Below, one piece after another: positions 1,555 to 63,934 of a DNA stretch of 64,000 nucleotides. The stretch lies in the NCBI RefSeq assembly GCF_003334765.1, contig NZ_QOWT01000017.1; one strand, 5' to 3'. Every line of letters begins with the position of its first letter. The first letter of the stretch is position 1. Position numbers and translations under genes: made by a program. The stretch is from Escherichia coli. Lineage in GTDB: Bacteria; Pseudomonadota; Gammaproteobacteria; Enterobacterales; Enterobacteriaceae. The notes under the pieces are model-generated. The model saw nothing but the letters and a program-made list of their open reading frames with translations, was not told the DNA's origin and did not search any database.

Positions 1555-2175
1555 ATGACCTTAGAATGGTGGTTTGCCTACCTGCTGACATCGATCATTT
1601 TAAGCCTGTCGCCAGGCTCTGGTGCAATCAACACTATGACCACCTCGCTCAACCACGGTTATCGCGGCGCGGTGGCGTCTATTGCTGGGCTTCAGACCGG
1701 ACTGGCGATTCATATTGTGCTGGTTGGCGTGGGGTTGGGGACGCTATTTTCCCGCTCAGTGATTGCGTTTGAAGTGTTGAAGTGGGCAGGCGCGGCTTAC
1801 TTGATTTGGCTGGGAATCCAGCAGTGGCGCGCCGCTGGTGCAATTGACCTTAAATCGCTGGCCTCTACTCAATCGCGTCGACATTTGTTCCAGCGCGCAG
1901 TTTTTGTGAATCTCACCAATCCCAAAAGTATTGTGTTTCTGGCGGCGCTATTTCCGCAATTCATCATGCCGCAACAGCCGCAACTGATGCAGTATATCGT
2001 GCTCGGCGTCACCACTATTGTGGTCGATATTATTGTGATGATCGGTTACGCCACCCTTGCTCAACGGATTGCTCTATGGATTAAAGGACCAAAGCAGATG
2101 AAGGCGCTGAATAAGATTTTCGGCTCGTTGTTTATGCTGGTGGGAGCGCTGTTAGCATCGGCGAGGCATGCGTGA
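1555..2175 (+). CDS. rhtB: Homoserine/homoserine lactone efflux protein (LysE/RhtB family)
   Basis: 206 aa hydrophobic [29 protein letters not shown]-terminus typical of RhtB. Confidence 0.92.
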
Positions 2176-8201: not shown

Positions 8202-8239
8202 GGTGGCTTAGCCAGACTAAGCCACCGCTCTCGTTTTTT
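8202..8239 (+). terminator. Intrinsic terminator hairpin at yigF/corA convergent junction
   Basis: ggtggcttag / ctaagccacc stem followed by gctctcgtttttt; the T-run overlaps the corA stop codon. Confidence 0.6.
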
Positions 8240-9188
8240 ACAACCAGTTCTTCCGCTTAAAGTACAGATACGGTGCCAGGCCCGCGAGGATCATAAAGAT
8301 AATCGCGCCAGGGTAGCCGAAGCTCCACTTCAGTTCTGGCATAAACTCAAAGTTCATGCCATAGCTGGAAGCAACGAGCGTCGGCGGCAGGAATACCACG
8401 GATACCACCGAGAAGATTTTGATGATGCGGTTCTGCTCGATGTTGATAAAACCCATTGCCGCCTGCATCAGGAAGTTCACCTTCTGGAACAGGGATTCGT
8501 TATGCGGCAGCAGGGATTCGATATCTCGCAGGATTTCACGCGCCTGCTCCAGTTGCCCACCCGGTAAACGCGCTTTACGCACCAGGAAGTTGAGCGCGCG
8601 CTGGGTATCCATCAGACACAGGCGAACTTTCCAGCCGATATCTTCCAGTTCCGCCAGAGTGGAGAGCGCCTCGTCGTACTCATCGCCCTGATGCCCTTCC
8701 ATAATCACCCGGCTCAACTGCTCCAGGTCGCTATAGATATTTTCAATTTCATCTGCCAACTGTTCGATTTTGGTTTCGAACAGATCCAGCAGCAACTCGT
8801 AGGCGTTACCGTCTACCATCGACTGGCTACGGGCACGCATACGATACAGACGAAAAGCGGGCAGTTCACGCTCACGCAGAGTAAACAGACGACCATCACG
8901 GATGGTAAATGCCACAGTGGAGTTACCGGCGTGATCTTCCGCATCTTCAAAGAAGAAGAAGGAGTGAATATGCAGGCCGTCGTCGTCTTCAAAGAAACGT
9001 GCCGATGCTTCGATGTCTTCCAGTTCCGGGCGGGTTGCCAGGCTCTGGCCAAGTTCAGATTGTACGCGCAGTCGCTCGTCGTCGTCCGGTTCGACAAGAT
9101 CAATCCATACTGCATTTACAAGGGGTTGTGACTCTTCGACTTCCAGCCGGGTCAGTCGGTTATTTTCCAGTTGAAATGCGCTCAGCAT
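8238..9188 (-). CDS. corA: Mg2+/Co2+/Ni2+ transport protein CorA
   Basis: 316 aa from ATG (complement 9186-9188) [12 protein letters not shown]...; C-terminal [10 protein letters not shown] signature with two TM helices. Confidence 0.95.
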
Positions 9189-9557
9189 GACCGGGACTCC
9201 CAATGCTTAAAATATCGGACAGTTCGGTGGGCACACAGAAACAAATTGGGTTTCAGACCATTAAACAGCCTGACTCAGCGCGACGGGAAAAATTGAGGTC
9301 GCTGACAACCGCTAAGGCTATCAGCAAAAAGGGATAGCCTTAGGAGTTGATCCTGGATGACAGGATAGTGAGCCAGTATCTACTGGGTGTGTCCAAGGCG
9401 AATGTCCTCTTAGAGTGATCGTGCGCGCATGTTACGCCAGCAAAATTTTGCCGTCAACACGCAACAGAACACCACAGAACAATAGTTGAACTTCGCGCTT
9501 TTTGGTACTCGTCAAGGTCGCTAACAGGATAAAAAAATCCCACATCCAGGACCTATA

Positions 9558-10322
9558 ATGGCGCATCAGCTACTCATTGGTAAAGGAATGATCACCTTGA
9601 ATCTCAAACGGATTTTTCTCGCCCTCACCTTACTTCCCTTGTTTGCTGTTGCCGCTGATGATTGCGCACTCTCAGATCCGACGCTGACCGTACAGGCGTA
9701 TACCGTTAATCCTCAAACAGAGCGGGTGAAAATGTACTGGCAAAAAGCCAATGGCGAAGCGTGGGGAACGTTACATGCTCTGCTGGCGGATATTAATAGT
9801 CAGGGTCAGGTGCAGATGGCGATGAACGGCGGCATCTATGATGAAAGCTATGCGCCGCTCGGTTTGTACATCGAAAACGGTCAGCAGAAGGTGGCGTTAA
9901 ATCTCGCTTCAGGTGAAGGGAATTTCTTTATCCGTCCTGGCGGCGTGTTTTATGTCGCGGGAGATAAAGTCGGCATCGTTCGTCTGGATGCCTTCAAAAC
10001 CAGTAAAGAGATTCAGTTTGCGGTGCAGTCAGGGCCAATGTTGATGGAAAACGGTGTAATTAATCCGCGTATTCATCCCAACGTCGCCTCAAGCAAAATT
10101 CGTAACGGTGTTGGGATTAATAAACATGGGAACGCCGTGTTTTTGTTGAGCCAGCAGGCAACAAATTTTTATGATTTTGCCTGTTATGCCAAAGCGAAAC
10201 TGAACGTTGAGCAGCTGCTTTATCTTGATGGCACGATTTCACATATGTATATGAAAGGCGGGGCAATCCCGTGGCAACGCTATCCTTTTGTCACCATGAT
10301 TTCCGTCGAGCGGAAAGGTTAA
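9558..10322 (+). CDS. yigE: Secreted/periplasmic protein of unknown function
   Basis: 254 aa with N-terminal signal-like hydrophobic segment; function not inferable from sequence. Confidence 0.8.
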   Translation: MAHQLLIGKGMITLNLKRIFLALTLLPLFAVAADDCALSDPTLTVQAYTVNPQTERVKMYWQKANGEAWGTLHALLADINSQGQVQMAMNGGIYDESYAPLGLYIENGQQKVALNLASGEGNFFIRPGGVFYVAGDKVGIVRLDAFKTSKEIQFAVQSGPMLMENGVINPRIHPNVASSKIRNGVGINKHGNAVFLLSQQATNFYDFACYAKAKLNVEQLLYLDGTISHMYMKGGAIPWQRYPFVTMISVERKG

Positions 10323-10361
10323 AACGATAGTTTTGTGTCAGATACTGAAGATGGCGCAGAT

Positions 10362-10466
10362 GCCGGATGCGGCGTAAACGCCCTATCCGGCCTACATGAC
10401 GTTGCAATTTATTGAATCTGAATGATTTTTTAGGCCAAATAAGGTGCGCAGCACCGCATCCGGCAA
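10362..10466. repeat. BIME/RIP-type element: two inverted REPs flanking a conserved core
   Basis: gccggatgcggcgtaaacgccctatccggcctaca ... tgcaatttattgaat ... gtgcgcagcaccgcatccggca; the same 15-mer core recurs at 26352-26366. Confidence 0.7.
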
Positions 10467-23993: not shown

Positions 23994-24200
23994 AAAAAAA
24001 CGCCTGCTCTTATTACGGAGCAGGCGTTAAAACAGGTCTGTATGACAACAAGTGGGTGCTTCACTCAACGTTGTGTCCATGGTGTCTGATGAGGCATAAG
24101 CGACATCTGTCAGTGGACGATAAGCACCGTAAACGGCTCTGCGTCATTCCGGAGTTTATGAGGCACTAAGGCGAACATAAGAGATGGAATGAGCATCTAC
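23994..24200 (-). ncRNA. glmZ: GlmZ small RNA (regulator of glmS translation)
   Basis: Reverse complement begins GTAGATGCTCATTCCATCTC... and ends in the terminator hairpin AACGCCTGCTCCGTAATAAGAGCAGGCGTTTTTTT; matches my memory of GlmZ in the hemY-aslA intergenic region. Confidence 0.88.
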
Positions 24201-27820: not shown

Positions 27821-27897
27821 TGGTCGGCGAGAGAGGATTCGAACCTCCGACCCACTGGTCCCAAACCAGTTGCGCTACCAAGCTGCGCTACTCGCCG
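27821..27897 (-). tRNA. proM: tRNA-Pro (UGG)
   Basis: Reverse complement CGGCGAGTAGCGCAGCTTGGTAGCGCAACTGGTTTGGGACCAGTGGGTCGGAGGTTCGAATCCTCTCTCGCCGACCA. Confidence 0.95.
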
Positions 27898-27939
27898 AAA
27901 TACTGCTTTTTGAATTTTTAGTTCAATTCTTTAAAGTCG

Positions 27940-28026
27940 TGGTGCGAGGGGGGGGACTTGAACCCCCACGTCCGTAAGGACACTAACACCTGAAGCTAGC
28001 GCGTCTACCAATTCCGCCACCTTCGC
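27940..28026 (-). tRNA. leuT: tRNA-Leu (CAG)
   Basis: Reverse complement GCGAAGGTGGCGGAATTGGTAGACGCGCTAGCTTCAGGTGTTAGTGTCCTTACGGACGTGGGGGTTCAAGTCCCCCCCCTCGCACCA (87 nt, long variable arm). Confidence 0.95.
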
Positions 28027-28046
28027 ATTGTCACAACTTCTAATAA

Positions 28047-28123
28047 TGGGGTGGCTAATGGGATTCGAACCCACGACAACTGGAATCACAATCCAGGGCT
28101 CTACCAACTGAGCTATAGCCACC
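28047..28123 (-). tRNA. hisR: tRNA-His (GUG)
   Basis: Reverse complement GGTGGCTATAGCTCAGTTGGTAGAGCCCTGGATTGTGATTCCAGTTGTCGTGGGTTCGAATCCCATTAGCCACCCCA, with the extra 5' G typical of tRNA-His. Confidence 0.95.
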
Positions 28124-28180
28124 ACTACAAATCTTGTTACGCGGTATTACTACCACCGCAGCTCAAGCGCCGGGACTAAA

Positions 28181-28257
<77 letters not shown>

Positions 28258-44541: not shown

Positions 44542-44871
44542 TTACGCCAGGTTAGCGTCGAGGAACTCTTTCAACTGACCTTTAGACAGTGCACCCACTT
44601 TGGTTGCCGCCACTTCACCGTTTTTGAACAGCAGCAGAGTCGGGATACCACGGATGCCATATTTCGGCGCAGTGCCAGGGTTTTGATCGATGTTCAGTTT
44701 TGCAACGGTCAGTTTGCCCTGATATTCGTCAGCGATTTCATCCAGAATCGGGGCGATCATTTTGCACGGACCGCACCACTCTGCCCAGAAATCGACGAGG
44801 ATCGCCCCGTCCGCTTTGAGTACATCCGTGTCAAAACTGTCGTCAGTCAGGTGAATAATTTTATCGCTCAT
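44542..44871 (-). CDS. trxA: Thioredoxin 1
   Basis: 109 aa from ATG (complement 44869-44871) [37 protein letters not shown], with WCGPC active site; the track ORF has a 35-codon upstream extension. Confidence 0.97.
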
Positions 44872-45001
44872 ATATAACTCCACAGGAATAAGCCTGGCGT
44901 GTTGGTTTCGTTGTTGGTGTAACATTAACCAACTAAAGGTTGACTTTATTTCACCGGATACGCTTTCGTAAAGCAATAGTAAGCTGATATTCTACCACAC
45001 T

Positions 45002-60076: not shown

Positions 60077-60127
60077 TTAGTTCCCCGTCCTGAATCTTGA
60101 GAAACAGAATTTTGTGCTGTTATTCAT
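60077..60127 (-). CDS. ilvX: 16-aa small protein between ilvL and ilvG
   Basis: Reverse strand ATG AAT AAC AGC ACA AAA TTC TGT TTC TCA AGA TTC AGG ACG GGG AAC TAA = [16 protein letters not shown]; ends 2 nt before the ilvG start; matches my recollection of the small protein ilvX. Confidence 0.6.
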
Positions 60128-60156
60128 TGTCTGCTCCTCGGTTATGTTTTTAAGGT

Positions 60157-60189
60157 CAAAAAAAACCCCCGGACCTTTCGGTGCGGGGG
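60157..60189 (-). terminator. ilvGMEDA transcription attenuator (leader terminator)
   Basis: Reverse complement GACCCCCGCACCGAAAGGTCCGGGGGTTTTTTTT immediately downstream of ilvL. Confidence 0.85.
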
Positions 60190-60213
60190 TCTTAGTTCGT
60201 TAAGGCTTGATCT

Positions 60214-60312
60214 CTAAGCCTTTCCTCGTCCAAGTGCAGCCCCGCACGGTGGGATAATAATCACCACCACGCTAATCACGACCAGGCTAATCACTCGTAG
60301 AAGGGCTGTCAT
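60214..60312 (-). CDS. ilvL: ilvGMEDA leader peptide
   Basis: Reverse strand encodes MTALLRVISLVVISVVVIIIPPCGAALGRGKA (32 aa), rich in Leu/Val/Ile regulatory codons. Confidence 0.9.
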   Translation of the reverse strand: MTALLRVISLVVISVVVIIIPPCGAALGRGKA

Positions 60313-60664
60313 TTTGTCTTTTCTTGCATCTTGTTCGAAGGAATGCCTAAAGAGTTACCATAGGTTTTGTAAATAGTACAAGATATTTTTTGGCCGATTT
60401 TTATGATGCGTTTAATAATTTCAATATAAATTGTTGTTTTTTAAAAATAAAATAGTGAGTGAAAAAAATTCAATTTCAGTATGAATGTTGTTCCCTTCCT
60501 CGTAGTTCATCCTTTGTCCGCTGCATTTTTGCGAGCATCATTCCACCGCCAGAACAACTCAACTTCACTTGCACAAATAAACAGGAATCAGCCACTAAAA
60601 TTCACGAATTAGCGGGCTACAGCAGCGATATCTTATGCACATAATGGTGACTCAAGGAGGGCTT

Positions 60665-63601: not shown

Positions 63602-63677
63602 TGGCAGGGGCGGAGAGACTCGAACTCCCAACACCCGGTTTTGGAGACCGGTGCTCTACCAATTGAACTACGCCCCT
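63602..63677 (-). tRNA. trpT: tRNA-Trp (CCA)
   Basis: Reverse complement AGGGGCGTAGTTCAATTGGTAGAGCACCGGTCTCCAAAACCGGGTGTTGGGAGTTCGAGTCTCTCCGCCCCTGCCA. Confidence 0.95.
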
Positions 63678-63685
63678 AATTAGGG

Positions 63686-63762
63686 TGGCGGAACGGACGG
63701 GACTCGAACCCGCGACCCCCTGCGTGACAGGCAGGTATTCTAACCGACTGAACTACCGCTCC
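63686..63762 (-). tRNA. aspT: tRNA-Asp (GUC)
   Basis: Reverse complement GGAGCGGTAGTTCAGTCGGTTAGAATACCTGCCTGTCACGCAGGGGGTCGCGGGTTCGAGTCCCGTCCGTTCCGCCA. Confidence 0.95.
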
Positions 63763-63814
63763 ACCGAATTCTTTTACAACCACCGGTTTTATGACCGGCT
63801 TACTGCTTAATTTG

Positions 63815-63934
63815 ATGCCTGGCAGTTCCCTACTCTCGCATGGGGAGACCCCACACTACCATCGGCGCTACGGCGTTTCACTTCTGAGTTCGGCATGGGG
63901 TCAGGTGGGACCACCGCGCTACGGCCGCCAGGCA
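63815..63934 (-). rRNA. rrfC: 5S ribosomal RNA
   Basis: Reverse complement TGCCTGGCGGCCGTAGCGCGGTGGTCCCACCTGACCCCATGCCGAACTCAGAAGTGAAACGCCGTAGCGCCGATGGTAGTGTGGGGTCTCCCCATGCGAGAGTAGGGAACTGCCAGGCAT (120 nt); rrnC assignment is from synteny; the last 66 nt of the window are 23S-5S spacer. Confidence 0.95.

Follow-up and report, generated by a model that had tools for sequence, protein, structure and literature searches.

The hairpin that lies between the divergently transcribed genes corA and yigE of Escherichia coli is almost certainly stem-loop C, the anti-termination arm of a translation-coupled, Rho-dependent attenuator in the corA leader, through which the amount of the magnesium channel CorA is adjusted. 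It is real and it is conserved, but it is also already published: the switch to which it belongs has been dissected in both Salmonella and E. coli. The two folds, the rut site, the dependence on Rho, the effect of the upstream reading frame corL and the response to Mg2+ have all been shown experimentally by others. Our own comparison of leader sequences confirms, independently of those publications, the conserved pairing, the compensatory changes and the frame-preserved corL. Coordinates below refer to the window, by which we mean the whole 64-kb stretch of E. coli DNA that was analysed; corA and every feature of its leader lie on the minus strand.

The corA–yigE interval, the promoter and the hairpin

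The surroundings of the hairpin are the rarD-yigG-yigF/corA/yigE/uvrD region of E. coli. Positions 9150–9600 are 100% identical to many E. coli chromosomes, and the segment was found in all 5426 of 5426 complete genomes. In the RefSeq annotation corA occupies 8238–9188 (316 aa, ATG at 9188) and its divergent neighbour yigE, a phosphodiester glycosidase family protein, occupies 9558–10322 on the plus strand. The interval between the two starts is 369 bp (9189–9557), not the 354 bp given in the first-pass annotation, whose boundary at 9204 is due to an in-frame TTG at 9203, five codons upstream of the corA ATG. The corA Shine–Dalgarno sequence GGGAG (9200–9196) falls within 9189–9203, as do reported Rho termination sites. 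On the far side of yigE, between it and the convergent uvrD, positions 10340–10465 hold GCCGGATGCGGCGTAAACGCCCTATCCGGCCTAC-type sequences that look like REP/BIME repeats.

Where does transcription of corA begin? The sigma70-like promoter (9429–9457) consists of a −35 element TTGACG at 9457–9452, a 17-bp spacer and a −10 element TAACAT at 9434–9429. The first-pass annotation had proposed just this promoter, and the proposal is confirmed: it is the sole sigma70-like match in 9100–9700, where shuffled sequences gave a mean of 0.4. The transcription start can be placed, within 3 nt, at 9420–9422. Numbering based on the Salmonella mutations puts it at A9422. The E. coli oligonucleotides, together with the primer name ‘corA41-71’, put it at G9420, the residue at which oFM4 and PBAD-CorArev join foreign promoters to GATCAC. 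The termination residues reported for E. coli (U211, G216, U220) fit best with a start at 9421. These schemes differ by only 1–2 nt. The 5′ leader thus extends from 9420–9422 to the corA ATG at 9188 (9189–9422) and measures about 234 nt; an earlier figure of roughly 240 nt was right in calling the leader long and is here corrected in length. Leader position n is converted to window position as 9423 − n, and the hairpin lies 80–111 nt downstream of the TTGACG/TAACAT promoter.

The promoter spacer itself contains a perfect 12-bp palindrome, GCAAAATTTTGC (9440–9451). We dropped it as a candidate, as it is not conserved outside Escherichia. Since the spacer differs in the other aligned genera, the palindrome is probably incidental.

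Read on the corA strand, 9343–9312 is CUAAGGCUAUC CCUUUUUGCU GAUAGCCUUAG, a perfect 11-bp stem (9312–9322 with 9333–9343) that closes a loop of 10 nt. The repeat widens to arms of 17 nt with 88% complementarity (9306–9322 and 9333–9349). The 9-bp arms that had been recognized first, AAGGCTATC (9314–9322) and GATAGCCTT (9333–9341), are correct; the spacer between them is 10 nt and not 11 nt. Among 2000 dinucleotide shuffles of the region, two produced a perfect inverted repeat of 11 bp or more with a 3–15 nt loop, a frequency of 0.001, and the 64-kb window contains repeats of that size in only five places. The other four start at 23999, 42913, 51104 and 57184; the first falls within a match to GlmZ, and the remaining three are likely terminators. 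The full leader is more stable than every one of 200 shuffles (z = −4.15). Folding of the leader had been suggested in the first-pass annotation, and the hairpin is indeed present in the minimum-energy fold, along with stem D.

Stem-loops A to E and the published attenuator

How does this hairpin relate to what has been published? The corA leader of Salmonella forms either stem-loops A and B or stem-loops C and D, together with a constant stem-loop E; the uORF corL overlaps stem A, and a rut site is present (PMC5314796, Kriner & Groisman 2017, Nucleic Acids Res). The boundaries of the rut site are nt 89 and 177, and Rho-dependent termination occurs near the corA start codon (PMC5314796). Mutants of GGC (84–86) and of GCC (105–107), and their compensatory combination, demonstrated that stem C controls access to the rut site: M1 (G84 G85 C86) and M2 (G105 C106 C107) together restored stem C function. 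Stem C also controls a downstream pause of RNA polymerase (PMC5314796).

We rebuilt the stem positions from the mutation lists of PMC5314796 and, for each possible start position, compared the identities of the residues mutated in Salmonella with those in the window. With +1 at 9422, the upstream mutated residues match in 13 of 13 cases (G24 C25 C26, G84 G85 C86, T97, C99, G105 C106 C107, G121 and G123), while any other offset yields at most 4 of 13. The downstream mutated residues match in 14 of 14 cases, given two extra nucleotides in the D loop of Salmonella, bringing the total to 27 of 27. The M1*/M1 positions, G24 C25 C26 and G84 G85 C86, fall on stem A, those of M7, M5 and M2 on stem B, and those of M5 and M6 on stem D. 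Because the M1 and M2 residues lie in the two arms of the hairpin and because their joint mutation restores stem C function in Salmonella, the hairpin is identified with stem-loop C. No Salmonella locus is found among the best 80 loci of our genome scan, so the comparison between E. coli and Salmonella rests on the residue identities printed in PMC5314796. The two leaders are alike in the layout from promoter to ATG, in corL and in the alternative A+B and C+D pairings; that of E. coli is shorter by about 4 nt (234 versus 238 nt), and its D loop has 2 nt fewer. A structure model of the Salmonella corA leader is reportedly also to be found in the work of Kriner & Groisman in J Mol Biol in 2015.

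In E. coli K-12, Mg2+ control of corA is exerted by the leader and not by the promoter (Vezina Bedard et al., RNA Biol 2024; PMC11552253). The corA promoter alone, fused to lacZ, is unregulated; the leader alone, placed under a tet promoter, confers regulation. The leader has a Rho ChIP termination score of 3.3, and Rho/NusG-dependent termination in vitro occurs at U211 and G216–U220 (PMC11552253), approximately 9201–9212 of the window. We give a range since the coordinates depend on the +1 used in that paper (9420–9422). Locking the leader in the ON or the OFF fold alters corA expression (PMC11552253). Replacing corL's UUG initiation codon by AGG increases corA expression, and replacing it by AUG decreases it; corL and corA are inversely coupled (PMC11552253). 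The Rho mutation R66S reduces Mg2+ regulation of corA from 3.3-fold to only 2.4-fold (PMC11552253), so that other factors contribute. The wild-type parts of four oligonucleotides from PMC11552253 match the window exactly, and the ON-state mutant oligonucleotides rewrite nt 74–79 and 112–117, the extension of the stem C helix. There is no difference in sequence between the K-12 leader and ours; the +1 of that study lies two nucleotides downstream of the Salmonella-style numbering. A review of 2025 lists corA as an established Rho-dependent attenuator in both Salmonella and E. coli. The suggestion of the first-pass annotation that the hairpin serves regulation, in a Rho- or ion-dependent way, is therefore borne out by PMC5314796 and PMC11552253. 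Its reading of a structured leader was sound; what escaped it was corL, the competing stem-loop B that shares the 3′ arm of the hairpin, and the prior publication.

The uORF corL (9340–9396, leader nt 27–83, 57 nt) starts with UUG at 9396 and comprises 18 codons (MDTPSRYWLTILSSRINS). It coincides exactly with the position of RefSeq ysgD (WP_211180520.1), and its UUG start is the one described, with its mutants, in E. coli (PMC11552253). It is preceded by a Shine–Dalgarno sequence, GAGGA, at 9405–9409 (nt 14–18). Its UAA stop codon (9342–9340, nt 81–83) sits inside the 5′ arm of stem C.

In the OFF fold, stem A (9337–9399) pairs nt 24–30, GCCUUGG (9399–9393), with nt 80–86, CUAAGGC (9343–9337). 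It encloses two hairpins, H1 (9386–9373) and H2 (9366–9350), and corL overlaps it. Stem-loop B (9300–9326), also of the OFF fold, pairs nt 97–107 (9326–9316) with nt 113–123 (9310–9300) at a calculated energy of −16.7 kcal/mol; it has nt 101–107 in common with the 3′ arm of C and nt 121–123 in common with the 5′ arm of D. In the ON fold, stem-loop C, the reported hairpin (9306–9349), has a core of nt 80–90 (9343–9333) paired with nt 101–111 (9322–9312), and an extension in which nt 74–78 (9349–9345) pair with nt 113–117 (9310–9306). By calculation the core alone has an energy of −14.3 kcal/mol; adding the extension brings it to −20.4 kcal/mol. Stem-loop D (9280–9302) pairs nt 121–125, GCGAC (9302–9298), with nt 139–143, GUCGC (9284–9280), around a C/U-rich loop. 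Stem-loop E (9253–9273, nt 150–170) has an energy of −7.4 kcal/mol; its Salmonella equivalent is at 152–172, and the residues mutated there match the E. coli stem at an offset of 2 nt. The putative rut, or Rho-loading, region (9248–9334) is assigned by homology as the equivalent of Salmonella nt 89–177. It contains two G-poor tracts, UAUCCCUUUUUGCU (nt 87–100) with 7% G and CCUCAAUUUUUCCC (nt 125–138) with 0% G and 43% C; overall, nt 87–175 have 27% C and 22% G.

Is stem C also a target for RNase III? Its 11 bp and the further 5 bp of the extension make up the longest near-perfect helix of the leader, which might in addition serve as a substrate whose cleavage destabilizes corA mRNA. RNase III reportedly controls the decay of corA mRNA by cutting in its 5′ untranslated region (Lim et al. 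2012, J Bacteriol), and the E. coli paper invokes ribonucleases for the regulation that is left in the Rho mutant (PMC11552253). On the other hand, a paper from the group of Lim et al. states that RNase III needs a stem of about 22 bp, and the 16 bp of stem C are interrupted by a bulge. A long-range helix of nt 47–54 with nt 146–153, stacked on other stems, provides an alternative substrate. We regard this additional role of stem C as unlikely.

Does the hairpin itself terminate transcription? A simple terminator scan does flag, near this position, a hairpin that a U-rich tail follows. The one flagged is stem B with the tail CCUCAAUUUUU (9300–9326, tail to 9290), not stem C, and the U run of that tail is separated from the stem by CCUCAA. 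Stem B is probably not an intrinsic terminator, since published termination lies about 100 nt further downstream; the U/C-rich tail that follows it forms part of the rut region. What follows stem C is GCGGUUGUC, in which there is no U tract, so the combination of a GC-rich hairpin with a U tract that marks an intrinsic terminator is absent, and the reported termination again lies about 100 nt downstream of it. As for a functionless palindrome, conservation in 81 loci and the frequency of 0.001 among shuffles exclude that the repeat arose by chance. That the hairpin is an intrinsic (Rho-independent) terminator or an accident of sequence has a negligible chance of being right.

How does the switch work? 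Transcription begins about 234 nt upstream of corA and proceeds through the 18-codon corL. In the ON fold (C and D) the pyrimidine-rich Rho-loading tracts are kept in hairpin loops, allowing RNA polymerase to read into corA. In the OFF fold (B, with or without A), stem B takes up the 3′ arm of C together with the 5′ arm of D; the Rho-loading site is exposed, and Rho terminates transcription at the start codon of corA or shortly before it. Once a ribosome arrives at the stop codon of corL, it is expected, by the logic of its footprint, to cover the 5′ arm of C, so that B would form and corA would be repressed. If translation of corL were poor or stalled, C would be free to form and corA would be expressed. 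In E. coli the outcome is a corA that responds to intracellular Mg2+. For the sensing of Mg2+ itself, the literature offers as candidates the initiation or elongation of corL translation, or direct folding of the RNA.

The folding energies are in keeping with such a switch. For nt 1–147, the ON fold (C enforced) has a calculated energy of −44.3 kcal/mol and the OFF fold (B enforced) one of −42.5 kcal/mol; on this calculation the two folds are balanced, nearly isoenergetic. With nt 66–95 blocked, as by a ribosome at the corL stop codon, the computed fold contains stem B. With nt 27–60 or nt 40–70 blocked, as by a ribosome stalled early in corL, it contains C plus D. Both outcomes agree with the published account, in which efficient translation of corL leads to B and Rho termination and poor translation to C+D and read-through. 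The footprint sizes used in folding are an assumption; the direction of the effect is experimental (PMC5314796, PMC11552253).

Conservation of the leader in the Enterobacterales

A genome scan with CorA provided the best 80 species-level loci, none of them from Salmonella, and 81 Enterobacterales loci were compared, spanning Escherichia to Yersinia, Serratia, Erwinia, Pantoea, Dickeya, Hafnia and Edwardsiella. The −10 box TAACATGCGC lies upstream of corA at a comparable distance in all 81 of them, with leaders of 211–304 nt. Pairing and covariation were measured in 78 distinct aligned leaders. In the ON structure 94.3% of cells are paired, a share that drops to 15.8–42.0% when the partner columns are slid by 1–3 positions. 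It includes 12 pairs with compensatory changes, and none of 500 shuffles reached the covariation observed. The OFF structure, at 95.2% paired and also with compensatory changes, is conserved to a similar degree. Among the individual stems, 99.3% of cells are paired in A, 97.6% in B, 99.7% in D and 93% in E, and hairpin H2 has four pairs with compensatory changes.

Taken alone, stem C is 94.6% paired. Three of its pairs show compensatory changes: C86–G105 to U–A, U87–A104 to C–G and U89–A102 to C–G. Two pairs never vary, and U81–A110 is unpaired in 29 of the 78 leaders; U81, as the base with which the stop codon of corL begins, is not free to covary. Covariation is modest since sequence conservation is so high. 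The commonest substitution, A104G (22–25 leaders), retains a wobble pair both in C (U87·G104) and in B (G104·U116), which is how a base under double constraint should behave.

Could the inverted repeat instead be an operator in the DNA? A perfect 11-bp repeat of the palindromic type, situated in a divergent intergenic region, is what a transcription factor controlling corA or yigE might recognize. Yet the repeat occupies positions +80 to +111 in the transcript of corA, and yigE is more than 200 bp away. Stem C contains 27 cells with G·U wobbles, and its compensatory changes preserve the pairing and not the sequence. Such wobbles pair only in RNA of the corA sense strand; on the other strand they are A·C mismatches, so that neither a palindrome acting in DNA nor an antisense RNA can account for them. 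Finally, the unregulated corA promoter–lacZ fusion and the regulated leader under the tet promoter (PMC11552253) both speak against an operator, and we consider one very improbable indeed. The evidence favours an RNA stem, stem C of the corA leader.

The reading frame of corL is conserved along with the stems. Its Shine–Dalgarno sequence GAGGA is invariant in the 78 distinct leaders. In 81 of 81 loci corL is kept at 17–19 codons, and all insertions and deletions are multiples of three. Its stop codon is always found in CUAAGG or CUAGG, and the N-terminus of the peptide follows MD(T/A)PS(R/K/T)(Y/C)WL across the 81 loci.

The preserved frame bears upon another reading of the leader, in which it is an RNA that senses Mg2+ directly, like a metal riboswitch, and stem C is set by ion-dependent folding and not by the translation of corL. 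The E. coli paper leaves a direct effect of Mg2+ on the structure of the leader as a possibility (PMC11552253), and for Salmonella mgtA Mg2+-dependent folding alone alters Rho termination in vitro. Against it, start-codon mutants of corL move corA expression strongly and in the predicted directions, the frame of corL is preserved in 81 of 81 loci, and the leader matched neither the Rfam Mg sensor nor any other riboswitch family, even at E values up to 10. Direct sensing is thus improbable, and coupling to the translation of corL remains the reading that we prefer.

A known system of like logic is the mgtA/mgtL leader of Salmonella and E. coli (Rfam Mg_sensor); no similarity in sequence or structure is detectable between the two. 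Like that of corA, it places a uORF within a three-way junction, has two folds that exclude each other, undergoes Rho-dependent termination (shown in Salmonella) and controls a Mg2+ importer. The two differ in that proline and acidic codons abound in mgtL, against a single proline in corL, and in that mgtA is also under PhoP-dependent promoter control, whereas the corA promoter is unregulated. The Mg_sensor model itself has no match in 8800–10000 at E values up to 10, and none at its gathering score in the whole window.

Rfam family RF02899 and the corA leader of the Pasteurellaceae

No Rfam family covers the E. coli corA leader, either in a permissive search of 8800–10000 or at gathering scores across the whole window. 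It is because no family recognizes the enterobacterial leader that the leader looks unannotated in a raw scan. Elsewhere in the window, Rfam and ARAGORN returned matches at 23994–24200, 44842–44941, 60094–60386, 27821–28257 and 63602–63932; they comprise the GlmZ sRNA, a TrxA 5′ UTR thermometer, the ‘Rev39 5′ UTR’ family, a Pro-Leu-His-Arg tRNA cluster, and 5S rRNA with tRNA-Asp and tRNA-Trp. A match of mir-76 to the leader (20.9 bits, against a gathering score of 75) reflects hairpin shape only and was discarded.

The second-best sub-threshold match to the leader is RF02899 (AaHKsRNA54, ‘Aggregatibacter sRNA 54’), at 9437–9298, with 17.4 bits and E = 5.3. The score is below the RF02899 gathering score of 37 bits. 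The consensus of this family holds AGAGGACA...UUUGGACA, which resembles the ribosome-binding site and start of corL. What, then, is RF02899? Rfam files it as a free-standing sRNA gene; the main text of the Aggregatibacter sRNA paper mentions neither sRNA 54 nor corA.

A search of metagenomes with the pattern GAGGACA-N3-7-TTTGGACA was too loose: 119 of the 120 stretches returned had no CorA nearby and are probably chance matches. On one metagenome contig, L099, a CorA homologue is accompanied by a full-length RF02899 match of 132.5 bits (1576–1693, minus strand), about 200 nt upstream and on the same strand. We examined seven corA loci of the Pasteurellaceae, two from Aggregatibacter and one each from Pasteurella multocida, Gallibacterium anatis, Actinobacillus succinogenes, Haemophilus pittmaniae and Avibacterium paragallinarum. 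RF02899 scores above its gathering score in all seven, at 54.8–133.5 bits, on the corA strand and 90–200 nt upstream of corA (L203:902–1019, L206:381–498, L207:398–516, L208:483–611, L209:462–582, L210:447–556 and L211:458–569).

The resemblance of these loci to the E. coli leader extends beyond the match. Each has TTGAC(G/A), a 17-bp spacer and TAACAT (TATTAT in two), followed by GAGGA. Each then has a uORF with a UUG start and 10–13 codons, which begins MDSHSRY (pattern MD-x-x-S-R-Y), and a CGCC/GGCG hairpin that adjoins or overlaps the stop codon of the uORF. Of the 85 nucleotides that run from the −35 box to codon 8 of corL in E. coli, each locus has 57–63 in common. A search with a profile of the Enterobacterales leaders recovers all seven loci, at E values of 1e-7 to 7e-4. 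In one Aggregatibacter leader the minimum-energy fold places the 3′ arm of the hairpin in an alternative, B-like hairpin. RF02899 differs from the E. coli leader in its shorter uORF, in the sequence of its hairpin and in that the model includes the −10 box. From these comparisons RF02899 appears to be the 5′ part of the Pasteurellaceae corA leader, homologous to the E. coli element, and not an independent sRNA.

We may go one step further, albeit tentatively. It is conceivable, though we would not call it probable, that the module of corL and stem C predates the Enterobacterales, that RF02899 is its Pasteurellaceae form, and that the conserved M-D-x-x-S-R-Y peptide is itself part of the sensor. 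It is the conservation of M-D-x-x-S-R-Y across both orders, just ahead of the switch hairpin, that suggests a part for the peptide and not only for the RNA. If true, the peptide might, for example, be a Mg2+-sensitive motif for translation arrest or slow-down.

The corA leader switch is by now a textbook-level case of uORF-coupled, Rho-dependent attenuation, and finding it once more adds little in itself. What is added here are the window coordinates of every published part and a comparative confirmation across 81 Enterobacterales species. To relabel RF02899 as a cis-acting corA leader would be of modest value to curation, and it would extend corL-type control to the Pasteurellaceae.
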